The notes beneath the pieces were generated by a model. The model searched no databases. It was given only the letters and a program-made list of their open reading frames with translations, and was not told the DNA's origin. From NCBI GenBank assembly GCA_036679605.1, contig JAZDCZ010000324.1:101375-165374 (forward strand): a stretch of DNA of 64,000 bases, given 5' to 3'. Both the position numbers and the translations under genes were made by a program. The DNA comes from Gemmatimonadota bacterium. Its GTDB lineage: Bacteria; Gemmatimonadota; Gemmatimonadetes; Gemmatimonadales; GWC2-71-9. The stretch's first letter is position 1. Each line of letters begins with the position of its first letter. Positions 42,792 through 64,000 of the stretch are shown piece after piece.

Positions 42792-43997
42792 ATGATCAAA
42801 TTCACAACTGCTGGTGAATCACATGGGAAGGCGCTGGTCGCGATTCTGGAAGGGATTCCTGCGGGACTACAGCTAGTTGCTGATGACATCGATCATCAGC
42901 TCCGACGGCGGATGGCCGGGTACGGTCGGGGGGCGAGAATGAAGATCGAGTCCGATGCGGTCGAGTTCATCTCGGGCGTGCGTGCGGGCGAGACGCTGGG
43001 ATCCCCAATCGCTCTTCTAATTCGCAACAAAGATTGGGATAACTGGATTGACGTGATGGCTGCGGAACCCGACCGCGATCAGTCTGCCAGACGCCGCCGC
43101 CGGGTTTCGAGACCGCGGCCCGGACACGCTGATTTGGCGGGAGTCCTAAAATACCGGCGTACTGACGCACGTGACATTCTCGAACGCGCGAGCGCGCGGG
43201 AAACTGCGGCACGGGTTGCGTGCGGAGCGGTTTGCCGTCGACTTCTGAAGGAGTTCGGAGTCGAGGTAGGAAGTCACGTGGTCGAGATGGGATCCGTGAA
43301 GGCGCCACCGTTGCCGGTACTCCCGACACCGCTCAACGAAACGGCTGACGAATCACCAGTCAGGTGTCTTGATCCAGGCGCTAGCGAGGCGATGGTGGCA
43401 GCAATAGACCAGGCCATGAAGGAGCGAGATACATTAGGAGGTGTGGTCGAAGTCATAGTTCGTGATTCGGTCGTGGGTTTGGGTTCGCATGTCTCATGGG
43501 ATCGCAAACTGGACGGACGTCTCGCTGGTGCGATCATGTCGATTCCCGCGGTCAAAGCAATCGAGATTGGAATGGGGTTTGATTCAGCCCGCAATCGAGG
43601 TTCGGTTGTGCACGATGAGATCAAGCGCAGCGAGCGAGCGCGAACGGGAGGTGTAAGCAGAACCACGAATCGGGCCGGCGGGTTGGAGGGCGGGATGACG
43701 ACGGGTGAACCGCTGATCCTGAGGGTGGCAATGAAGCCCATATCTACTTTGCGTCGGCCGCTCGACACAGTGAACATCGAGACAGGAATGGGTGCCAAGG
43801 CCCAGTCGGAGCGCTCGGACGTGACAGCTGTGCCGGCGATGGGCGTCATAGCCGAAGCGATGGCCTCGCTGGTATTGAGCGACGCCATGTCGGAAAAATT
43901 CGGTGGTGACTCGCTGGACGAGATGCGCAGTAACTACGAGTGCTATGTTGAACATCTGGAGAGTCGCTGGCGGAGCCGGGAGGAAGAGCACGAGTGA
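42792..43997 (+). CDS. aroC: Chorismate synthase
   Basis: TAGESHG, RPGHAD, ERASARETA, NRAGGLEGG, MKPIST, RSD. Confidence 0.97.
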   Translation: MIKFTTAGESHGKALVAILEGIPAGLQLVADDIDHQLRRRMAGYGRGARMKIESDAVEFISGVRAGETLGSPIALLIRNKDWDNWIDVMAAEPDRDQSARRRRRVSRPRPGHADLAGVLKYRRTDARDILERASARETAARVACGAVCRRLLKEFGVEVGSHVVEMGSVKAPPLPVLPTPLNETADESPVRCLDPGASEAMVAAIDQAMKERDTLGGVVEVIVRDSVVGLGSHVSWDRKLDGRLAGAIMSIPAVKAIEIGMGFDSARNRGSVVHDEIKRSERARTGGVSRTTNRAGGLEGGMTTGEPLILRVAMKPISTLRRPLDTVNIETGMGAKAQSERSDVTAVPAMGVIAEAMASLVLSDAMSEKFGGDSLDEMRSNYECYVEHLESRWRSREEEHE

Positions 43998-53531: not shown

Positions 53532-54020
53532 ATGTCTATCTCTGTGGCCGTGCTGACCGTATCCGATGGGGTAGCCGCTGGAAAGCGTGTCGACGAGTCG
53601 GGAGAGGTAATCTCGACTTGGATTGACAAGAAAGGCTATGCGTTGGCCGCCCGCGAAGTCGTTCCCGATGAAAGTGACATGATTGCAAGTCAGCTTTCCC
53701 GATGGGCTGATGATGGTGTTGCAGACTTAATCATCACGACAGGTGGAACAGGACTTGGAGAGCGAGACGTAACACCCGAAGCGACTCTAGCTGTACTGGA
53801 ACGGGAAGCGCCTGGCATTGCAGAAGCGATACGGGCGGACGGTCGCAGGAATGTCCTACGCAGTGTGTTGTCTCGTGGAGCGGCAGGCGTTCGTGGCAGA
53901 GTGCTGATCGTGAACCTTCCGGGAAGTCTTGGTGGTGTAAAGGACGGCATCAGGACGCTCGATCCCCTAGTTGAGCACTCCGTCCAGCTGCTTCGTGGCG
54001 AACCCACTGATCATTCATGA
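53532..54020 (+). CDS. Molybdopterin adenylyltransferase, MogA/MoaB family
   Basis: LTVSD, TTGGTG, RDVTPEA, LSR, NLPGS. Confidence 0.9.
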   Translation: MSISVAVLTVSDGVAAGKRVDESGEVISTWIDKKGYALAAREVVPDESDMIASQLSRWADDGVADLIITTGGTGLGERDVTPEATLAVLEREAPGIAEAIRADGRRNVLRSVLSRGAAGVRGRVLIVNLPGSLGGVKDGIRTLDPLVEHSVQLLRGEPTDHS

Positions 54021-55552
54021 GTACGACCGTTCTCATATCAATGGACGATCTCGAAGCGGCGGTTCGCGCAAACGCCCAACTCGAGGAAGTCGGTTTTGAC
54101 ACAGTGCTGGTGTCGTCGGTGGATGACGTCTCGGGTGTGTTACGGAAATCGGAACCCGACGTAGTGGTCTTGACCGGCGCCCTTCAGGAGCACACCGCAA
54201 AAAAACTGATTGGTCTAGCGCGCGATCGTTCGATCTCGACCCTCGGTCTTATTGAGGCGCCGATAACAGATCCCGAAACTTTGGCTGGGCGTTTGGGTCT
54301 CACAGCCTGGCTCATGAAGCCTGTTGATGCATCCGAAGTCGCAGCAGTTACTCAACGACTTGTCGAGCGGAGAAGGTTGCAGCGGCGTACCGGAATTTCT
54401 GGAGAGAGTCCGGCGATTCAAGAAGTGCTTGTGAAGATCGAGCAGATGGCTCCGGTCAAGAGCAACGTGCTCGTGGAAGGCGAATCGGGCACCGGGAAGG
54501 AACTCGTTGCCCACGCGATTCATGACCTCTCGCCGCGGAGGGACGGACCGTTTATCGCTGTTAGCTGCGCAGCGCTTCCTGAAACGCTACTGGAGTCGGA
54601 GTTGTTTGGACACGAGAAGGGTGCATTTACAGGTGCAGCGGAGCGCAGACTAGGGCGGTTCGAGCTAGCACATGGTGGCACACTCTTCTTGGATGAAGTC
54701 GGCGAAATGCCAGTTGCAACGCAGGTTAAACTGCTTCGAGTACTGGAGAATCATGCATTCTTCAGAGTAGGCGGTACCGACTCGATACGAGTTGACGTAC
54801 GTGTGGTTGCCGCCACGAACCGCTCTCTCAAGGAGTTGGTGGCGCTACGGCAATTCCGCGATGACCTGTATTACAGGCTGAATGTGCTGTCGATTTACCT
54901 CCCGCCCCTAAGGGAACGAAAATCCGATATTCGCATTCTAGTCAAACGCTTCGTAGAAGAGCTTAGCGAGGAGCACGGTAGATCGTTCTCCGGAATTTCT
55001 CCTGAGGCAATGGAAGTTCTGGTAAATGCGGACTGGCCCGGCAATATCCGGCAACTCAGAAACCTCATCGATTCCATGGTTGTGCTCGCACACGGCAGGG
55101 AAGTTCGTGCCAGTGATATCCCGACGGATATTCGAGAGGGTGGCTCGAGATTGCTACCGGTGCACCTTCCGCATCAAGCGGTGGACGTTCAAGGCAAAGA
55201 ATTGGAATTCATATTCCGAACCCTCGTGGAGTTGAAGCTACAGGTGGAAGACTTGCGTCGGCGCATGGATGACGTTCCTCAGCGCGTGGAAGTCATCGAC
55301 GTGGGTCGTGTTGCTCCGGCGGAGTATGAAGAGCTAACCCGTGACACCAGTGAGTCGTCCGATGAAACGGAGCCAAAGGACGATGATACCCAGGTCGTCT
55401 ATCGCCCCGGAATGAACATGGCGGAAGTCGAACGCGCTGCGATCAATGCAGCCTTACGGGAAACTGGTGGCAACAGACGTCGCGCAGCAGAAAAACTCGG
55501 CATTGGCGAACGCACGCTTTATAGAAAAATCAAGGACTATCGGCTGGTCTGA
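54017..55552 (+). CDS. Sigma54 enhancer-binding protein with a degenerate receiver domain
   Basis: [22 protein letters not shown] and HTH; the receiver reads PDVVVLT at the phospho-Asp position. Confidence 0.88.
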
Positions 55553-57303
55553 GGAATTCCGACCAGTTCGGTCAACTCGAAGTTCAGTTGAATGATGTCG
55601 CCGGCGCCCAGCTGAGTCGTGGTGGCGACGCCGGACCACCCGGGCAGCCTAACCTGCACCGTTACCACTTGCCTTTGTGGCACCCCGCAAGCGGCGTAGT
55701 AGCCGGCCCAGTCAGACATCGCCCAAATCTCCACAAGCTTACCCGGAGCTTTGCGAGTACCGGGGAGTCGTGCGGACAGCGTTATTTCTGCCTCTCTGAG
55801 CGCCTTGCCGCTTGCAGCGTCGCGAACGAATCCGGACACCATACCCACGCTGTCAGCTATCGTGGACGATGGGCACAATCGCGACCAAACAGCACGTGCC
55901 GATGGTATGGCGATTCCAACCGTCGCAGTACGCCCCAATTCGAGAGTGGCCTTTTGCCTGGGAGGTACAAAGCCAAGACTGTCGAGAAATTCGCGGGGGA
56001 AAGATATCTCGTAAGTGTCTTCAGCTAGTCCATGCAGAAAGAAGCGCCCGCTACTATCGGTGCGCGCCCGGTATCCAGTTCCTAACAGAATGACAGTTAC
56101 ACCGGCCAACGGTTCTGCGGTTTCCATATCGACGACTTTGCCGATCAGAGATGTTGCCAAACCACGTTGGAGCAATGTGCCGTCGAGTGCATGAATCTCG
56201 CTGACCCAACCACCCATTTCCTTTACCGCCGCGAGGTAGGGCTCGGAAGTAAGGTCGCTGAATTTGGTCTGTCGAACTCCAATAACCGGCATCCGAATCC
56301 ACCACTTGCGGACCATCCAAGGGCCGTCAGGCAATCGTTCGAACTCGACACGCCCGCCTACGTGCTCCGACTGGGTTCCCCGTGGAACGCCGGTGTAGCG
56401 GTACTCGAGGTACTGTAATCGAGCCGATTCCTGGTCGAGCCAGAGAACTCCTTCGATGTCCGGCACCTTCCGTCCCCTGATGGGCTTGAACGCCAACCCA
56501 ATCAATCTGGCGTCTTCGTGTCTCTGTACCGAGAAGCAGTGTAGGTTCGCGAATTCGTTCGACAACAGAACGGTCGCGTCCGGTCCGTAGTAGTAGTACT
56601 CGTGTTTGCCGGTCTGCTTGATAAAGCCGGCGGCGGCCAATTCATCAGCCGGTAGAGTACGAAACGGACTCGCCCGATACATCCCCGACTGCGACCAGCG
56701 CAGACTGTCCTGGGATCTCAGCGAATGTGGGTCCAGCAGTCGCTGGTACTGAACCAATCGATGACGCAGAGTCCCTTGCTCCTCGGTCCACGCTACGGCG
56801 TCCAGAGCTTTCTGCGCTTCCTCCCACAGCGTCAGCGCTGCGATGCTCGCCTCCCGGCGCGTTCGGCAGGCCTTATCTCCTCGGATAACGAGAGTTGGGA
56901 GTGTTATTGAGATCGCTGGAATTACGAAGGTGAACTCCACGGTCTCGTCGACGGCAACATCGATGGGCTCGGAGATCTTGCTCTTTACGCCAATTACTGC
57001 GGACCTCAATCGGTACCGGCCCGCGCCGGGTGCCTCCAGGGTGAATCGTCCTCGGGGATCCGTCAGCGTTCTCGTATGCTGCAGCGAACTATTGCCCAAC
57101 AGGATCACGAATCCACCAGATATCGGGCTGCCCGTTATCTCATCGACTAGTGTCCCACTTATGGTCTGAGAAAACAGCGGACCTGCGACGAAAAACATCG
57201 CCAGCAGTGCGCTGAGGCTGACGGCCGCCATTGAGGAGGCTGGAAGCCGGATCGGTACGGTTGTTACGGTCCTCTTCTCGTCCACACCGCTATGACGCCG
57301 CAA
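55537..57303 (-). CDS. Secreted protein with several CarboxypepD_reg-like domains
   Basis: Signal peptide; three G.V.D..G.P/A...T/SD..G.F/Y repeats. True start may be ATG 57231. Confidence 0.7.
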   Translation of the reverse strand: MRRHSGVDEKRTVTTVPIRLPASSMAAVSLSALLAMFFVAGPLFSQTISGTLVDEITGSPISGGFVILLGNSSLQHTRTLTDPRGRFTLEAPGAGRYRLRSAVIGVKSKISEPIDVAVDETVEFTFVIPAISITLPTLVIRGDKACRTRREASIAALTLWEEAQKALDAVAWTEEQGTLRHRLVQYQRLLDPHSLRSQDSLRWSQSGMYRASPFRTLPADELAAAGFIKQTGKHEYYYYGPDATVLLSNEFANLHCFSVQRHEDARLIGLAFKPIRGRKVPDIEGVLWLDQESARLQYLEYRYTGVPRGTQSEHVGGRVEFERLPDGPWMVRKWWIRMPVIGVRQTKFSDLTSEPYLAAVKEMGGWVSEIHALDGTLLQRGLATSLIGKVVDMETAEPLAGVTVILLGTGYRARTDSSGRFFLHGLAEDTYEISFPREFLDSLGFVPPRQKATLELGRTATVGIAIPSARAVWSRLCPSSTIADSVGMVSGFVRDAASGKALREAEITLSARLPGTRKAPGKLVEIWAMSDWAGYYAACGVPQRQVVTVQVRLPGWSGVATTTQLGAGDIIQLNFELTELVGIPQTSR

Positions 57304-58049
57304 CCCGAGTCCATGTCGCTGAATTCAATGGGGACCTCCGACGGCCTGTATATTTCGATTCCCTCGAGATCGTGGGGGAAAAGCTCCCGATCCATACCCT
57401 CGAAGGTGTCGACTGACCCCCACTTCGCGTTGTCTACCCAGAGGCTTGGCGGGCAAGGGCTCCCCTTGATTCGAACGGTCCACCCGGCTCCCTGCTGGGG
57501 CGATCGGACAATCCGCACGCCTGCGACCAACCTAAGTAGGCTTGTAATCTGGGTGGAGGCCCGTTCTTCAATGTCCTTCCGGGTCACGAAGTGTCCCATC
57601 CCCTTCTCGACCCGGTCGTAAAAACCTCGCAATGGTCCCGGTGCATAGGGTGCAGAATCTGCAGTAACTACGACTGCCGGTAGTTCTGTGAAGGTCCATA
57701 GTTGCAGCTTGAACTGCAGACTCTGCCCCTTTTTGATTATGAAGGGGAGCGCGTTCAGAGTGTTGTATCCCTGAGCGTCGACTCGGAAACTGTAGGTGCC
57801 GGGGCTGGGTGTACGGATCGAATAGAATCCGGCAGAATCGGCGATCCCGATGCGCTTGACCTGCCCATCCTTGCTCAGGAGCACGAGAGAGGCGTCCGGA
57901 ACTGGAGCCCCGCTTGCATGATCTACTACTTGGCCCCTCACCGTCTGTGCCACTGCGGGGTGGGTCTGGATCCCGGTGAAGGTCAGCACGGCCAGAAAAG
58001 CGGCCATGGTGGCCCTAGGGTCGACATGCGAATTGATCGGTAGTCTCAT
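57264..58049 (-). CDS. Secreted CarboxypepD_reg + TonB-plug-like protein without a barrel
   Basis: Signal peptide, VRGQVVD, LPAVVVTA, GFYDR...GHFVTR..IE, LEGIEIY, CGVIAVWTR; only 261 aa. Confidence 0.72.
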   Translation of the reverse strand: MRLPINSHVDPRATMAAFLAVLTFTGIQTHPAVAQTVRGQVVDHASGAPVPDASLVLLSKDGQVKRIGIADSAGFYSIRTPSPGTYSFRVDAQGYNTLNALPFIIKKGQSLQFKLQLWTFTELPAVVVTADSAPYAPGPLRGFYDRVEKGMGHFVTRKDIEERASTQITSLLRLVAGVRIVRSPQQGAGWTVRIKGSPCPPSLWVDNAKWGSVDTFEGMDRELFPHDLEGIEIYRPSEVPIEFSDMDSGCGVIAVWTRRGP

Positions 58050-58263: not shown

Positions 58264-58340
58264 AGTGATGTAAGTCACTGACATTTAGTGTGTTGAAGCA
58301 CTTTCAGCTATTGACAATCGGCCCTGAATAAGGCTATAGT
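58264..58340 (+). promoter_or_regulatory. Sigma70 promoter with an upstream CRP/FNR-like palindrome
   Basis: AGTGA-N6-TCACT at 58264-58279; TTGACA (58311)-N18-TATAGT (58335). Confidence 0.55.
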
Positions 58341-58417
58341 AGGGGTCCGTTTAGCCCAACTAAGGATACCTAAACAATACACCTCGGTCGCCGGGGCCCA
58401 GGCTGGCACATGGATCA

Positions 58418-60136
58418 GTGCGGTTTGAGATAAACCCCGAAAAATGCGTGAGTTGCCTGGCCTGTGTGAGGGTGTGCGCGGTTCAGGCAATTGCGGTCGA
58501 TGGGCCAAACGTGCGGATCGTGGACGATGTGTGCATTCGCTCAGGAACCTGCTTGCCCGAGTGCCCTCACGACGCGATCGATGCAATTGGTGACCTAGAC
58601 CGGGCCCTGGCGCTGGCCGGGGGTGGCGAGGCGGTCTTGATCCTGGCGGTGGAATCGGCGGTCCACTTCTACCCCCAGACGCCCGAGCAGCTCGTAAACG
58701 CCTGCTACCGTGCGGGGTTCAAGGTGGTTCACCGTGGTGTGCTGGGCGATGAGCTGGTGGCGGAGGAGTACCAGAGGCTGTGGGCGGATCCCCATTGGGG
58801 GACGATGATTCGCTCGACATGCCCTGTAGTGGTGGAGCGGATTCGCACCGATTATCCGGAGTTGGTGCCCTTCCTGGCTCCGGTCCAGACGCCGCTGGCG
58901 GCCGAGGCGTTGTACCACCGGGCGCTATATGGGGAGGAAGTGCCGCTGGTCTACGCCGGTGTCTGTCTGGCCGAGGCCGAAGGTCAGCTGGACGCGACGC
59001 TGACCTTCGAGGAGCTGGAGGAATTACTGGGGCGCTGTGGGGTGGACGTGTCGGCGGAGCCCTCGTATTACGAGCGGATTCCCGAGGTTCGGGAGCGATG
59101 CTTGAGTGCGGCGGGGGGGTTACCGCTCGACCTGTTGGAGAGTGAGCATCAGGCGAGCCGGCGATTTCGCAAAGTGCGGGGGCTAGGGGGGTTGGGGGCG
59201 ATCTCACGGGCTGTGGGAGTGCACCGGATGGACCTGGGGTTCGTTGACATCCTGCCGTGTGAGGGGTGTCTCGCCCACCCGTTGATGGGTCCGCCTGAGG
59301 AGTTGTTCTGGCGCCGTAGCGTGGTGAACGACACGGAGCCGAAGCGGTGTGATACTCCGGTAACGGATTCTGGGGTGAGTGTCCAGATCGAGCGGGCGTT
59401 CCCGTTCATCCGCAACGGGCACAAGCCGAGGGCCGCCGAGTTGAAGGGAGTGTTGGAGACCATCGGCCGTGCTCCGGACGGCTCGCCGTGGGACTGCGGG
59501 GCCTGTGGATATGGCACGTGTGACGGTTTCGCTGCGGCGCTGCTGCAGGGCCGGTCCACACTGAGGCAGTGTACGCCCTATCAGGAGCGGCGCGCCGATG
59601 AGGCGGTGCGGTCGGCGGCAGTGGACGAACTGACCGGCCTAGCGACGTTTCGCATGCTGCGCTCGCGGCTGGAACAGGAAGTGGCCCGCAGCGATCGTAG
59701 TGGCGAGGAGTTCTGGGTGATCTTTGTGGACCTTGATGAATTCAAGGGCGTCAACGACGTGCATGGGCACGACGCGGGCAACAGGGTGCTGGAGGGAGTC
59801 GGTGCGATAATGCTGCACAGCGTCCGCAAGACTGACATGGCGGCCCGCTACGGCGGCGACGAATTTGTGCTGGTATTGGTGAGGACCGATGTGGAGGGTG
59901 CGCGACGAGTGGGCGAGGTAGTGCGGGAGTCGGTCGAGGCTTTGGGAGTGGCACAGGGGTTGGAAGTTGGAGAGATCGGCGCTTCGATCGGTGTAGCCTG
60001 TCACGATCCTAACGCCGAGAAGTTAGCAGACGCGTTGCGGGAGGCGGACAGAGCCATGTACCGGGCCAAGGAATTGGGTGGCAATGTGGTGGTGTTGGCG
60101 GGAGACAGAAAAGCGAATGGAAACGAGGAGCGATGA
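58418..60136 (+). CDS. Fe-S / [FeFe]-hydrogenase-like sensor fused to a diguanylate cyclase
   Basis: CVSCLACVRVC and CIRSGTCLPEC; H-domain-like RSTCP, GVC and PCEGC; DCGACGYGTC...C; DELTGL, DLDEFK.VND..GH..G, RKTD I-site, RYGGDEF. Confidence 0.85.
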   Translation: MRFEINPEKCVSCLACVRVCAVQAIAVDGPNVRIVDDVCIRSGTCLPECPHDAIDAIGDLDRALALAGGGEAVLILAVESAVHFYPQTPEQLVNACYRAGFKVVHRGVLGDELVAEEYQRLWADPHWGTMIRSTCPVVVERIRTDYPELVPFLAPVQTPLAAEALYHRALYGEEVPLVYAGVCLAEAEGQLDATLTFEELEELLGRCGVDVSAEPSYYERIPEVRERCLSAAGGLPLDLLESEHQASRRFRKVRGLGGLGAISRAVGVHRMDLGFVDILPCEGCLAHPLMGPPEELFWRRSVVNDTEPKRCDTPVTDSGVSVQIERAFPFIRNGHKPRAAELKGVLETIGRAPDGSPWDCGACGYGTCDGFAAALLQGRSTLRQCTPYQERRADEAVRSAAVDELTGLATFRMLRSRLEQEVARSDRSGEEFWVIFVDLDEFKGVNDVHGHDAGNRVLEGVGAIMLHSVRKTDMAARYGGDEFVLVLVRTDVEGARRVGEVVRESVEALGVAQGLEVGEIGASIGVACHDPNAEKLADALREADRAMYRAKELGGNVVVLAGDRKANGNEER

Positions 60137-60873
60137 GTTCTACAAAGCCAGAACCGAAGCCTGAGCCGCCCAGACCGGCGGCGAGTCGGTCCGAGGAGGA
60201 AGTTCGGAAGCCGGACCCTTGGGGGGTCAAGCGGGCTGAGAATCTGCTCCAGAGTCTGCAAGGGATACTCTCGGCGCGGGTTGTGGTCTCGCCCATCGGT
60301 GAGATAATCGAGGTGCATGTGCTCGCGAGTAGCGGCGGCGCGCCCAAGCAGGTGGTTCGCAACGTAGAGAGCGCTTTGTTGGCTCACCTCGGCATAAAGG
60401 TCGACCATCGCAAGATCAGTGTTGCACAGACGGCCGACGTCAAGCCGATAGAGGCGTTGGAGAAGGCGGCAGTGCAGCAAGCGGCGATGCGGCGCGGCGT
60501 CGTGTATCGGAAGTTGGAGCGGATTCCCGTTGGTGAACACCGCATTCGATTTGCGGTCACACTCGAGGTGAACGGACAGGATGTAGTGGCGGAGGAGGAA
60601 TCCGCCGACACCTCTCGAGCGCGCATGCAGGCTGTTGCGCGTGCAGCGGTGACTGCGCTGGACGATTCCTTGCCGACCGGCGTGTTCGAGTTAGAGGGTA
60701 TCAAGGTGATCGAGGCGTTTGACGAGGAACTCGTGGTGGCCGGGGTTCATGTGATCGAGGGTCGTCACACTCGTCTCCTGACGGGTACGGCGCCGGCGGA
60801 AGAATCGGCCGAGCAGGCGGCGGTGTTGGCGGTGCTGGACGCCACGAACAGATGGTTCCAGTCGCGCCAGTAG
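60133..60873 (+). CDS. Conserved-looking soluble hypothetical protein
   Basis: ATGA overlap with the cyclase; motifs EVHVL...PKQVVRNVESAL...DHRKISVAQ and C-terminal AVLDATNR. Confidence 0.8.
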   Translation: MSSTKPEPKPEPPRPAASRSEEEVRKPDPWGVKRAENLLQSLQGILSARVVVSPIGEIIEVHVLASSGGAPKQVVRNVESALLAHLGIKVDHRKISVAQTADVKPIEALEKAAVQQAAMRRGVVYRKLERIPVGEHRIRFAVTLEVNGQDVVAEEESADTSRARMQAVARAAVTALDDSLPTGVFELEGIKVIEAFDEELVVAGVHVIEGRHTRLLTGTAPAEESAEQAAVLAVLDATNRWFQSRQ

Positions 60874-60898
60874 CGGCGCACAGTAATTAGATAATTTC

Positions 60899-60927
60899 GG
60901 CCCCGTCCACACGGTGGGTGGGGTTTT
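60899..60927 (+). terminator. Probable intrinsic terminator
   Basis: GGCCCCGTCCAC-ACG-GTGGGTGGGGTT (with G-U pairs) ending in TTTT. Confidence 0.6.
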
Positions 60928-61126
60928 GGTTCGATAGCAGTGAACCAGAGAAGATTGTAAGCCAACAACAGAACCTAAGGAGAAAAGGGGGTGCCCCGAA
61001 CGGTGACCTAGCCAAGACGCAAGCGGAGTGAATCGGTCAGTAGTTAAGAGCGGAGCCTCGGGCATACCATAGCGAGGGATGCCACTTTCCACGCGGCGCA
61101 AGCCGCCCGAGAGGGGGTGACGCAAC

Positions 61127-61195
61127 ATGCTAGACTCGTTCATTATTTTTTGTGAGAAGCTTTTGGCGTTATCAGCCTGGCAGAGCTGGGGTTAA
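61127..61195 (+). CDS. Small 22-aa peptide MLDSFIIFCEKLLALSAWQSWG
   Basis: Strong SD GAGGGGGTGA at 61111-61120, 6 nt before the ATG; TAA at 61193-61195; below the ORF-track cutoff. Confidence 0.7.
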   Translation: MLDSFIIFCEKLLALSAWQSWG

Positions 61196-61229
61196 GTCAT
61201 AACGTGGGGCATCCCCCCCAACACTTTCG

Positions 61230-62582
61230 GTGCTCAAGCAAATTTCTAAACGTGGCGCGCTTTCGGTTAACTCCTACGTTTTCCTGGTAGCGGCGATTGG
61301 GATACTTGCATTCATTGTGGCACTCAGCGTAGATCCTTCCGTCTCAGCGAACGAAGCCGTATCTGTCACGGCAGTGCTAGCCTTCTTGGCCATCGCTCTC
61401 GGACTCCAGTTGGCTGAGCATCGACTTGCTGTTGGGAAGGCGACTGGATCTATAGCGTTCATCGTTTACTTAGCGTCTGCCCTCGTCTTCGGCGCTGTTT
61501 GGTGTGCAGTCATTACTGCAGTTACTGTTGGGAGCGCCCACGCTCTTAATCGCAAAACTCCTATCAAGATCGTTTTCAACGTATCCCAACATGTGATCGC
61601 ACTCATTGCTGGCACATCGGTTTACGTGCTGCTTGGCGGTACAATACCTCTGCAATCCCTGGATTCTGCTATCATCCCCTTCTTTGGGTTTGTCGTCACT
61701 TCATTTTCGATCAACAGTACTGCCGTGAGTGGTGTCATAGCAGTTAGCGAGGGCAAGCGGTTTGCCGAAGTCTGGCTGCGCAATACCTGGGCACTTGCAG
61801 GATACGATCTTGTTGCCAGTGCGCTCGGCCTTGGCGTTGCGTGGCTATACGTTCAGTTTGGCTTTGGCGGAATCGCAGGTGTAGTCATTCCGATTCTGTT
61901 TCTTCGGCACACATTCTTGATCAACCTCCAGTTGCAGAATACAAACCGTGAACTACTTGATCTTATGGTGAAAGCGATTGAAGCACGAGATCCGTACACA
62001 AGTGGTCATTCACAAAGGGTGGCTGAATTGGCCAGGATCTTGGGGCGCGAGCTAGGCCTTGGTTTTAAGGAAGTCGAGAGGATAGCGACCGCCGCGCTCT
62101 TGCACGATGTGGGCAAGATCTATGAGGAGTTTGCGCCGCTGCTTCGAAAGGAAGGAAAGCTGACAGAACAGGAGAGCTTTGTGATGCAATCTCATCCTGC
62201 CCGAAGTGCAGAACTAGTTGGCACCATTTCCAATTTGAGGGGCGTGGTAGAAGGTTGTGTACGTCACCACCATGAGAATTACGATGGTTCGGGGTACCCC
62301 GGAGGTTTGGCAGGAGAAGATATACCCCTTGGCTCACGTATCATCATGATTGCCGATACGACCGATGCAATGACTACCGATCGTCCGTATCGAAAAGCTC
62401 TCTCGTACAAACGAGTTCAGGAAGAGCTAGACGAATGCTCTGGGAAACAGTTTGATCCGAAGCTGGTACGTGTGTTCGGTCACAGTGCTGCGGTCCGTGC
62501 GATAATGGACGAAAGGGGTAGCCAACAACCGCTGCCTTGGAGATCGGCCAAGCAGTCGCTGCGTCTACGGGCAGTAAAGTAA
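61230..62582 (+). CDS. Membrane-anchored HD-GYP cyclic-dinucleotide phosphodiesterase
   Basis: About 6-7 N-terminal TMs; EARDPYTSGHS, LHDVGK, HHENYDGSGYP, IAD..DAMTTDRPYR, QFDP. Start uncertain because there is no clear SD. Confidence 0.9.
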   Translation: MLKQISKRGALSVNSYVFLVAAIGILAFIVALSVDPSVSANEAVSVTAVLAFLAIALGLQLAEHRLAVGKATGSIAFIVYLASALVFGAVWCAVITAVTVGSAHALNRKTPIKIVFNVSQHVIALIAGTSVYVLLGGTIPLQSLDSAIIPFFGFVVTSFSINSTAVSGVIAVSEGKRFAEVWLRNTWALAGYDLVASALGLGVAWLYVQFGFGGIAGVVIPILFLRHTFLINLQLQNTNRELLDLMVKAIEARDPYTSGHSQRVAELARILGRELGLGFKEVERIATAALLHDVGKIYEEFAPLLRKEGKLTEQESFVMQSHPARSAELVGTISNLRGVVEGCVRHHHENYDGSGYPGGLAGEDIPLGSRIIMIADTTDAMTTDRPYRKALSYKRVQEELDECSGKQFDPKLVRVFGHSAAVRAIMDERGSQQPLPWRSAKQSLRLRAVK

Positions 62583-62592
62583 AGCTACGTGC

Positions 62593-64000
62593 TCACGGTG
62601 GAGGCACCCCAAGGGTGCGGAGACGGCGTATGACGCCGTGCAGTCCCATATCCCTCAGCTCGTGAAATGGCGACAGGCTTGCTGTTTTATTGTCCGGTCT
62701 CTCCCTTGCCGCCCATTCTTCGAATGCGAGAACTTCGAGTCGGTCACTGATCTGAATACACCGCTGTTTAAGGTTTCCCATCTCCGAAAGTCTTCGCATC
62801 GCGTCAAAACCGTGGCACCTCCACATGTGGTGGCGACTTAGCCGCTCATACCGACCCATGTCTGCCAACATATACATGCGCCCCTTGGTGTGGGCTTGTG
62901 CTACTTCGATCAATGGCCAAGCCAGTTCTGGCCGAGCGCAAGCGATATGGAGATCAGATTCGGCAAGCAGAACATCCGTATACAGCCACCAGAGTTGAGA
63001 AGCCTCAGCGCGTAGTTTGGCGATATCAATGCATTGCCTCGCACCAGACATGTCATCGATCACCATACTTAGGCTGGCCATATTCAGGTTTGCTTCGACT
63101 GCCCGGCGAGGATTGGACGCGATGTTTTCCTGAGACAGAGCGGTGCGATAGCAATTCTCTGCGGTATCGAACTTTCCGATGTCTTCATATACTGCTCCGA
63201 GATTGCCCCATCCGTTTGCAACGGCGACAGAGTCTCCAATCCGTGTCGCTATGTTGATGGATCTGTGAAAAGCCTCGATGCCTTTTTCAAATGCACCAGT
63301 GCAAGTGTATGCCAGACCAATCCCGTTCAAAGCCTGTCGTATATTTGGGTCCAACGACAGTGGTTCAAGTATCGTGAGGCACCTCCTGAAATGGGCAACC
63401 GCAGAGCTTGCTTCGCCAGCTACTAGCGAGCAGTACCCTTGTGTCAAGAGTGCACTGGCTCTTATTGATGGATCGCTTGCAGCGTTCTCGATGCTCGCCG
63501 CTTTGACCCGAACGACGTTCACGTCAGTCCAATCGCCCCTCTCCGATGCCACTTCTGCTCGGACCTGCAGGGAACGCATGGCGATCGACTCGTCGTCACA
63601 CTCCTCAACGAATTCTGACGCAAGAGAAGACGCCCTCATGATCTGATCGTCGTCGGCCAATCTTCCACGATGTAGAGCTTCAGCGCGAATAGTAGCTGCC
63701 AAGGCCTCGCCGCAATGAGTCGTCTTCGAGCACCTCCAATGTGCCAACGCTCTCAGCGATTCCTGATAACGACCTCTCGCGTTCAGGGCCTCTGCCATGA
63801 GGAGGTAGAGTGGCTGTGACTTATCCTCGGGGCATCTCTCCATCACTACCTGCAGCGCCCGCTCTGCCTCCTTAGGTGCTCCTCTCCTGACAGCGAGATC
63901 AGCACCAGCGCACACGGCTGTCACGGCATCATCGATCATTCTCGCTTTCGCGAAATGGTGTGAAGCCTCGAGGGCTCGCTGAAAGTCATCGGCTTCGCGA
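62593..64000 (-). CDS. TPR-rich protein, C-terminal part of a larger gene
   Basis: Frame stays open to the window edge (READDFQRALEASHHFAKARM...); TPR-like repeats ALNGIGLAY, GWGNLGAVY, ANLNMAS. Confidence 0.75.
   Translation of the reverse strand, partial: READDFQRALEASHHFAKARMIDDAVTAVCAGADLAVRRGAPKEAERALQVVMERCPEDKSQPLYLLMAEALNARGRYQESLRALAHWRCSKTTHCGEALAATIRAEALHRGRLADDDQIMRASSLASEFVEECDDESIAMRSLQVRAEVASERGDWTDVNVVRVKAASIENAASDPSIRASALLTQGYCSLVAGEASSAVAHFRRCLTILEPLSLDPNIRQALNGIGLAYTCTGAFEKGIEAFHRSINIATRIGDSVAVANGWGNLGAVYEDIGKFDTAENCYRTALSQENIASNPRRAVEANLNMASLSMVIDDMSGARQCIDIAKLRAEASQLWWLYTDVLLAESDLHIACARPELAWPLIEVAQAHTKGRMYMLADMGRYERLSRHHMWRCHGFDAMRRLSEMGNLKQRCIQISDRLEVLAFEEWAARERPDNKTASLSPFHELRDMGLHGVIRRLRTLGVPPP

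Follow-up and report, generated by a model that had tools for sequence, protein, structure and literature searches.

A conserved module of DHRKIS protein, structured leader RNA, small hydrophobic peptide and MASE9-HD-GYP phosphodiesterase in Gemmatimonadota and other phyla: a candidate peptide signalling pair

The window analysed here is a 64,000-nucleotide stretch of DNA from a Gemmatimonadota bacterium (assembly GCA_036679605.1, contig JAZDCZ010000324.1, positions 101,375 to 165,374 of the forward strand). It forms the end of contig C251 in a 6.7-Mb assembly; the genome is 96.5% complete with 6.3% contamination, and the closest named homologues belong to the Gemmatimonadales. Near the right-hand end of the window, on the plus strand, lie a gene for a 246-residue protein, here called DHRKIS (60133..60873, from open reading frame (ORF), homologue search and structure model), a structured leader, a 22-codon ORF led by a Shine-Dalgarno (SD) sequence (61127..61195), and a gene for a multi-helix membrane HD-GYP phosphodiesterase (61230..62582). 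These four elements are the conserved core of the locus. An initial annotation of the window had listed them together with a promoter, an iron-sulfur (Fe-S)/GGDEF cyclase, a terminator and a convergent TPR protein, and ORF, Pfam and motif checks found every element at its place, the multi-helix HD-GYP gene included. That annotation had also suggested that tiny ORFs and membrane HD-GYP genes accompany the DHRKIS protein in other phyla, and neighbourhood scans bore this association out. The module is real, widespread and undescribed; no published description was found in a literature search that had most subscription papers outside its reach. It is likely that the small peptide and the membrane domain of the enzyme form a cognate pair in some form, be it as released signal and receptor or as partners within the membrane.

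Sixty Gemmatimonadota loci were hand-picked among 150 listed DHRKIS matches to span five families, and the best 80 of 581 loci were taken from other phyla, a sample biased toward the query (Armatimonadota, Bacillota, Coriobacteriia and Sumerlaeota). Of 301 genomes in the phylum, 230 gave a DHRKIS match; this count takes in weak hits to paralogues as well as an unpublished genome (G157), which carries none of the claims made here. The HD-GYP gene comes next in 56 of the 60 Gemmatimonadota loci, the remaining 4 reaching the contig edge first, and in 64 of the 70 other-phyla loci with enough DNA. Six loci (L143, L148, L153, L163, L178 and L183) carry a DHRKIS homologue without an adjoining HD-GYP. 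At L103 and L104, and also at the ends of L199, L206 and L208, a helix-turn-helix (HTH)-receiver gene is inserted between the DHRKIS gene and the leader; leader and peptide remain with HD-GYP there.

The small ORF is intact in 57 of the 60 Gemmatimonadota loci (55 found by script and 2, with the HTH-receiver gene after DHRKIS, by eye) and is truncated in the remaining 3, where the contig stops, while in other phyla the peptide was found in at least 61 of the 64 HD-GYP-bearing loci (58 + 3). Eight script picks that lack the family pattern (L115-L118, L135, L143, L148 and L178) were left out of the counts on peptide build, on tail and core, and on the other-phyla leader helix P1 described below. 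In 19 disjoint same-length pairs the ratio of nonsynonymous to synonymous changes (pN/pS) was 0.25, and 144 of the 236 changes lay at third codon positions. Because of this ratio and the third-position excess the peptide is counted as a real product: judged from its substitution pattern, the small ORF is under protein-level selection. The Gemmatimonadota peptides are hydrophobic, 14-35 residues long and interrupted by a polar hinge, with Trp among the last three residues in 53 of 56; the last Trp is the sole invariant column of 36 aligned peptides. The ORF that the initial annotation had called a WxxWG peptide is thus present and conserved, but its motif is not. WxxW as a conserved modification motif was rejected, only the last Trp being kept and no radical SAM gene lying at the locus. 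Outside Gemmatimonadota the build is precursor-like, with a basic residue at positions 2-6 in 60 of 61 peptides followed by a hydrophobic core; GGA occurs in 37 of the 61, and these 37 carry 36 distinct short tails after it. Armatimonadota peptides, whose polar tail is longer and which have an AxA site, resemble Sec signal peptides. No peptide matched a Pfam or NCBIfam family above cut-off; a search by sequence found no solved-structure relative, and the Atlas returned unnamed clusters with no usable named match.

The gene that follows encodes eight membrane helices and an HD-GYP domain, as seen from profiles, motifs and a structure model. The MASE9 model PF20972 was matched by 41 of 43 orthologues at E≤1 (best 5e-13); by itself the window protein misses the Pfam model, and it reaches E 7e-20 against a profile of MASE9-type proteins and a profile-profile probability of 99.9 over 216 columns. 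On these profiles the membrane domain of the window enzyme is MASE9. The HD_5 match has E 3.6e-36, and HD, HHE, GYP and RPYR are invariant in 43 sequences; RxxR or Rxx(R/K) is the signature of HD-GYP domains acting on cyclic diguanosine monophosphate (c-di-GMP) (10.1101/600031). With metal and substrate motifs intact, the HD-GYP domain is a predicted c-di-GMP phosphodiesterase. The MASE9 structure model is confident (predicted local distance difference test score, pLDDT, 91) and matches the S-components of energy-coupling factor (ECF) transporters: RibU with Z 14.7 and a root mean square deviation (rmsd) of 3.1 over 161 aligned residues, all of the top 14 rows being S-components, and Foldseek returned the same families at E 0.02 and above. 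As modelled, MASE9 has the fold of the small-ligand-binding ECF S-components. The distribution of Lys and Arg, read by the positive-inside rule, places the vitamin-pocket loops L1, L3 and L5 on the cytoplasmic side, so that relative to what we take to be the S-component topology the fold would be inverted. The defining preprint of MASE9, in its available text, names no ligand and proposes binding within the membrane (10.1101/2021.11.05.467447).

Two families of other phyla served for co-variation, with 21 of 30 and 19 of 30 loci parsed (9 and 11 unparsed). Among pairs whose DHRKIS proteins are at least 95% identical, those with the same tail have MASE9 domains 97% identical (2 + 2 pairs), while those with different tails have MASE9 domains of 61% (7 pairs) and 52% (3 pairs) identity. 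In the same different-tail pairs where MASE9 drops to 52-61%, the HD domain is still 94-95% identical, and DHRKIS stays at 95-100% while tails change. At the level of sequence, peptide tail and MASE9 are exchanged together between close relatives, with unchanged flanks. Changes are also more frequent in the tail than in the core: across 28 pairs selected by DHRKIS identity, 70 of 140 tail residues had changed versus 161 of 518 core residues (50% versus 31%). A tail-versus-core comparison of 0.49 with 0.18 was set aside as biased, its pairs having been chosen on core identity. We also modelled a complex of a relative's 31-residue peptide with its own MASE9, not the window pair. The score was 0.58 and that of the best of three controls 0.00; the runs agree in 96% of contacts, the partners have pLDDT of at least 73, and no interface was given. 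Of the benchmark pairs, 116 of 157 with a solved structure passed the threshold, as did 2 of the 215 mismatches; 18 of the former and both of the latter fell at scores of 0.60 or below. The model of the relative's pair lends weak support to binding of the peptide to MASE9. The earlier proposal of a peptide acting on the HD-GYP membrane domain therefore fits the co-variation of tail and MASE9 and, to that limited extent, the complex.

The variable block reaches beyond MASE9. In the pair L052/L053, where the flanks on either side are about 95% identical, identity drops to 47-72% over a segment that begins immediately behind the peptide and runs as far as the TPR end of the convergent gene, which encodes a STAND protein. 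Five other close pairs have the same dip, less sharp; L076/L078 have none over peptide and MASE9, and the L068/L106 alignment is too poor to read. The G+C content at third codon positions (GC3) in Gemmatimonadota is 0.86 for DHRKIS, 0.65 for MASE9, 0.66 for the HD domain, 0.62 for the STAND TPR end and 0.79 for the STAND N-terminal part, and MASE9 lies below DHRKIS in 46 of 48 loci (7 of 55 were left out for want of a clean HD-GYP frame). The window follows suit, with 0.74 for DHRKIS, 0.52 for MASE9, 0.49 for the HD domain and 0.55 for the STAND TPR end. The block also leaves a trace in assemblies. Among 75 minus-strand DHRKIS matches, 15 have a contig end 200-450 nucleotides downstream, compared with 0-4 in every other 250-nucleotide bin; 10 of these 15 ends are inside the small ORF, and several plus- and minus-strand contigs stop right at the hinge before the tail. 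In 20 of 27 genomes picked for such contig ends there is no MASE9 match, though the genomes are 91-100% complete. A ribosomal RNA operon or repeat as the cause of these ends was rejected, because the contigs break within the leader or the small ORF and the own genome has just one copy of the leader. When contigs were aligned to the stretch, no joint was seen at the peptide. It seems that the enzyme is often missing from metagenome-assembled genomes because of the co-varying block.

The small ORF lies within a folded RNA. The leader (60874-61235) is more stably folded than any of 100 shuffled versions (z -3.4), and a long-range helix, P1, encloses leader and small ORF, joining a site 110-165 nucleotides before the ORF start with one 0-23 nucleotides after its stop. 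In the window the arms of P1 are at 60987..60998 and 61205..61216, the latter separated from the peptide stop by 9 bases and from the HD-GYP start by 13. The helix score in 56 Gemmatimonadota loci was 31.8 for a locus's own arms, 22.4 across loci and 20.2 after shuffling; in 60 other-phyla loci it was 33.3 versus 20.4. AGCG(A/G) words recur 2-6 times per leader and are strand-specific, with 2.37 per 100 nucleotides on the sense strand, 0.01 on the reverse strand and 0.46 in the DHRKIS gene. The window has three (61022, 61049 and 61071, within 61022..61083), which are candidate protein-binding RNA sites, the last of them in the loop of hairpin P2 (61061-61083). The P2 stem is 82% paired, by several pair types, versus 33-44% when slid (40 of 56 loci), and in a relative about 92% identical both changes in the stem preserve pairing. 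By these scores P1 and the leader are a real RNA structure, and the leader is an undescribed RNA motif. Rfam gave no match, neither for the window at E≤5 (none meaningful) nor for the leaders of 20 + 15 loci at gathering scores; a c-di-GMP riboswitch or other Rfam RNA was rejected on this result. An Armatimonadota group (L115-L118, L122, L123, L126 and L135), with a longer leader, 0-1 AGCG words before the picked frame and GCG instead of GGA in the peptide, offers a natural comparison for judging what the repeats do.

The arrangement raises the question of whether the small ORF is simply a leader (upstream ORF), the translation of which opens P1 and licenses translation of, or read-through into, the HD-GYP gene, the peptide product having no role, a mechanism like that of mgtQ for mgtB. 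A strong SD (61111..61119) serves the small ORF, while in 33 of 45 Gemmatimonadota loci no SD-like word is found 4-13 nucleotides ahead of the HD-GYP start, because of which translational coupling of the two is likely in Gemmatimonadota. This absence would suit a pure leader ORF, as would the P1 scores of own against swapped or shuffled arms, the 3' arm beginning 0-23 nucleotides after the stop, and the leader staying with the ORF when a gene is inserted after DHRKIS (L103 and L104). Such a role leaves unexplained, however, the pN/pS of 0.25, the core-hinge-aromatic tail build in every phylum and the switching of tail with MASE9. The Bacillota HD-GYP, moreover, often has its own SD downstream of P1, and P1 with a U-tract as a general terminator was rejected, a U-tract following P1 in just 17 of 60 and 12 of 56 loci. 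An upstream purine tract as a looped-in SD for HD-GYP was considered by eye; in L062 and L064 the tract pairs up to the start codon. A leader ORF with a peptide of no consequence is thus quite improbable; RNA-level coupling probably exists as well, on top of the cognate pair and not alone.

How the cognate pair might work is a further matter. One reading, to which we give a little less than an even chance, is that the unit is a strain-specific peptide signalling pair in which a released signal is read by MASE9 with c-di-GMP as output. The peptide would insert in the membrane via its hydrophobic core and be cleaved at its hinge of small residues, which is GGA or AxA in Bacillota, Coriobacteriia and Armatimonadota and is made up of Gly, Ala or Ser in Gemmatimonadota. 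The freed aromatic tail of 3-7 residues would bind the cognate MASE9 and switch the phosphodiesterase on or off, and c-di-GMP would thereby follow the density of kin cells. The folded leader, through AGCG repeats and P1, would set the amounts of peptide and enzyme, probably via the DHRKIS protein, and in Gemmatimonadota ribosomes translating the small ORF probably unfold P1, so that the two genes are coupled.

Several observations weigh against this reading. Tail and MASE9 are adjacent, so linkage alone yields co-variation, and tail similarity predicts HD-domain identity too (partial r 0.28 and 0.40, versus 0.36 and 0.28 for MASE9). L230 and L232 share a tail with MASE9 domains just 56% identical, and L052 and L053, whose peptides are one residue apart, have MASE9 at 63%; the kin compared are not independent, so that p values are overstated. 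In the DHRKIS-chosen pairs the pN/pS gap between tail and core is small (0.56 versus 0.42), the GC3 drop is weak outside Gemmatimonadota (0.65 versus 0.61), and one relative has just 4 substitutions in leader and ORF, a synonymous one being in the ORF, and thus no variation at that scale. A basic N-region occurs in only 7 of 56 Gemmatimonadota peptides, the window's being of the type that mostly lacks it, so these are mostly not classical signal peptides, and no processing gene was found at the window's locus. With the pocket on the cytoplasmic side, a peptide outside could presumably not simply use the vitamin pocket. Finally, the controls of the complex model were unrelated proteins and included no non-cognate hydrophobic peptides.

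Some of these points, and others, would suit a peptide that is never released. It might be a membrane-held small cognate subunit or modulator of MASE9 in the same cell, diversified as lock and key, in the manner of MgrB, a small membrane modulator of PhoQ. All the co-variation evidence fits this equally well, the weakly supported complex was modelled with the full-length peptide, and the Gemmatimonadota peptides lack a signal-peptide N-region; stoichiometric co-translation would also match the missing HD-GYP SD (33 of 45 loci), and the MASE9 ligand has been proposed to bind in the membrane (10.1101/2021.11.05.467447). Yet a private subunit gives no clear reason for 36 tails in 37 peptides or for strain swaps that break assemblies, its expected main helix contact, the hydrophobic core, is the conserved part, and in Armatimonadota the AxA site and extended polar tail give the peptide the look of a Sec signal peptide. 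We regard a membrane-held partner as rather unlikely.

The peptide could also have another receptor. The convergent TPR ORF on the minus strand (62593..64000) ends 10 bases from the end of the HD-GYP gene, as the initial annotation had it, but it is the cut end of a STAND protein and not an RRNPP regulator: it comprises the C-terminal ~460 residues of a STAND (AAA_16 + TPR) protein of about 1,100 residues, cut by the contig end. The N-terminal part lies on contig C90, and the two contig ends overlap by 114 bases. Orthologues have 1,140-1,174 residues with AAA_16/NACHT and TPR (Pfam on 2 orthologues), so the suggested RRNPP role fails on architecture, STAND instead of HTH-TPR, though the TPR end lies in the same variable block. 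By tblastn the STAND protein was matched in 35 of the 51 Gemmatimonadota loci that are long enough, most of the others having a long convergent frame, and in none of 80 other-phyla loci. No other part of the block varies as much as its TPR end (37% identity in L052/L053, compared with 95% for the N-terminal part), which resembles a sensor under diversifying selection.

The second candidate receptor is the DHRKIS protein, a widespread uncharacterised protein with 2,611 family representatives at 50% identity. The window protein matches no named family above cut-off; one homologue (P0265) passes the Pfam LeuA_dimer cut-off (27.7 versus 24.9 bits), the sole named-family match. The DHRKIS model (pLDDT 82) has a small alpha/beta N-domain and a C-domain of the LeuA/CimA allosteric type (Foldseek E 5.5e-6; Z 9.9, rmsd 3.2, 110 aligned residues). 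The N-domain matches an acyl-CoA ligase subdomain, the CDF C-terminal domain and EscJ/PrgK at Z 7-9.7, a common arrangement that may be called KH-like; RNA binding by it is conjectural. That DHRKIS is a ligand-sensing regulator binding the AGCG repeats is a guess, and one we hold tentatively. The own genome also encodes a stand-alone protein like the LeuA-type C-domain (L213, G000:C334, about 42900-43350), and a weak second match of this type occurs in many genomes of the phylum.

The peptide might be a ligand of the STAND TPR or of the DHRKIS LeuA-type domain, or the block might vary independently of the peptide, for example if the STAND sensor were under pressure from phages, and MASE9 would then sense something else. 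Variability is still higher in the STAND TPR end than in MASE9, with low GC3 (0.62 versus 0.79 in the N-terminal part), TPR domains bind peptide pheromones in ComR (PMC8605241), and LeuA-type domains bind hydrophobic amino acids, going by the title of 3f6g. Against this, tail and MASE9 still co-vary in the other phyla, where STAND is found in none of the 80 loci, and DHRKIS, being 95-100% identical while tails change, does not behave as a receptor of the tail would. Either version is improbable.

The reading of a released signal sensed by MASE9 can be compared with known systems. As in comX/comP, whose variability pattern is the same as that of tail and MASE9 here (PMC4008528), a small precursor with Trp near a hypervariable C-terminus is encoded beside a multi-helix membrane receptor (PMC4008528, PMC4408185), the N-terminal domain of which varies while the cytoplasmic domain is conserved, and alleles differ among near-identical Bacillus strains. 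In contrast to ComX-ComP, the receptor here is an HD-GYP phosphodiesterase instead of a histidine kinase, the precursor has 14-47 residues instead of 52-73, and the gene is enclosed in a structured RNA. Neither a ComQ prenyltransferase, a ComP histidine kinase nor a ComA regulator is among the ORFs and Pfam matches of the locus; AgrB and AgrC are absent from the locus, and PF04647 was not found in the 96.5% complete own genome. The unit works like pherotype quorum sensing and is a member of none of ComQXPA, Agr and RRNPP. ComS/XIP-ComR and other RRNPP systems share with it a hydrophobic precursor of about 24 residues, C-terminal residues as the signal and co-evolution of sensor and peptide (PMC8605241), but no HTH-TPR regulator is present here, the TPR neighbour being a STAND NTPase of about 1,100 residues confined to Gemmatimonadota loci. 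The short intergenic ORF and the RNA structure over the start region of the next gene recall mgtQ-mgtB of Salmonella (PMC8092293); unlike mgtQ, the ORF here encodes a conserved membrane-type peptide under protein-level selection, whose tail co-varies with the sensor domain of the next protein. The enzyme itself is of the same family as TM1467 of T. maritima and the MASE9-HD-GYP protein HdgA of S. venezuelae (10.1101/2021.11.05.467447, PMC6205966). The available text of these papers names no ligand, peptide, leader or DHRKIS partner, the word peptide occurring 0 times in the main text of 10.1101/2021.11.05.467447; the S-component fold of MASE9 comes from the structure search in the present analysis.

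MASE9 has been defined as a sensor without a known ligand, and the peptide tail is a concrete candidate for it. Cultured Desulfosporosinus-like genomes carry tetrapeptide tails such as SFRI, SYRI, TFRW and TFKW, every one of them paired with a MASE9 allele of its own, and offer a natural specificity panel. If the signalling reading is true, kin recognition would be tied directly to c-di-GMP, and so to biofilm and lifestyle, without kinase or transcription factor, and pherotype-type peptide signalling would extend to phyla where searches found none. Somewhat more speculatively, the unit could be a third route of peptide quorum sensing beside the histidine-kinase and RRNPP routes, in which a tail from a micro-protein encoded in its own structured RNA is read by a phosphodiesterase on an inverted vitamin-transporter fold, with pherotypes in Bacillota, Actinomycetota, Armatimonadota and the diderm Gemmatimonadota. 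DHRKIS would then act in feedback as an RNA-binding amino-acid sensor, and in Gemmatimonadota the peptide might also key the STAND protein.

Upstream of DHRKIS lies a gene (58418..60136, plus strand, Pfam) for a ferredoxin, [FeFe]-hydrogenase-like and Fe-S portion fused to GGDEF, whose ORF shares 4 bases (ATGA) with that of DHRKIS. It is an accessory, lineage-specific member: in two Gemmatimonadota families it adjoins the unit in 31 of 33 and 5 of 5 loci (36 of 38), in the three other families in 0 of 22, and in other phyla in 0 of 80. The initial annotation had joined this cyclase and a peptide-tuned phosphodiesterase in one redox-sensing system; both genes are present, but the cyclase is confined to two families, and redox-controlled synthesis is therefore a lineage-specific add-on at best. 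Redox-driven synthesis set against peptide-tuned breakdown is possible in this lineage, the conserved system being the peptide unit without cyclase. Compared with what we take as the reference H-cluster motifs, L1 lacks its second Cys and L2 its Lys, and HydG and HydF had no match above cut-off in the 96.5% complete own genome (HydE was not searched for). Because the motifs are incomplete and these maturases were not found, the hydrogenase-like portion is probably an Fe-S redox sensor and not an H2 enzyme. At the guanine-specificity position (Ser348 of GacA, canonically Asp) 31 of 34 orthologues, and the window protein, have Asn, 2 have Ser and 1 is unmatched, whereas the 4 other GGDEF domains of the own genome that fit the pattern have Asp. 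Since Asn or Ser replaces the guanine-reading Asp, the window GGDEF may not be a plain diguanylate cyclase. Ser at this position marks the Hypr enzymes that make cyclic GMP-AMP (cGAMP) (PMC6456294, section 12, where Asn is not among the residues tested). As in GacA and Hypr domains, the Asp is replaced and the motif is GGDEF and not GGEEF, as Ser/Thr variants require (PMC6456294); unlike them, 31 of 34 have Asn here, and the product could be c-di-GMP, a mixture or none. The two Ser-type orthologues, from L056 and L058, would combine an Fe-S sensor with a candidate Hypr (cGAMP) cyclase.

Upstream of the cyclase gene there is a sigma-70-like promoter match (58311..58340, plus strand), by consensus alone (11/12), and 3' of the DHRKIS gene a GC-rich hairpin with a short T run (60899..60925, plus strand; hairpin 60906-60922), a weak, possible terminator. 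Such sites are at chance level on their own, with 3 promoter-type sites found versus 2.3 expected and 4 terminator-like hairpins versus 5.0. In three families, 46 of 50 loci have a receiver-AAA-Fis sigma-54 activator gene (54017-55552 in the window) upstream of the unit; in the own genome two carboxypeptidase-regulatory-like genes (55537-58049, minus strand) stand between it and the cyclase. Two modules are present in several genomes, and in one genome of the same genus (L190, G060:C101) the second, divergent module has a 16-residue peptide of a type from another order. In Bacillota and Coriobacteriia (L124, L141, L149, L171-L173 and L186) the unit follows hpf/raiA and often precedes secA, a second HD-GYP or DUF5317, and at L186 a raiA RNA lies upstream of it.

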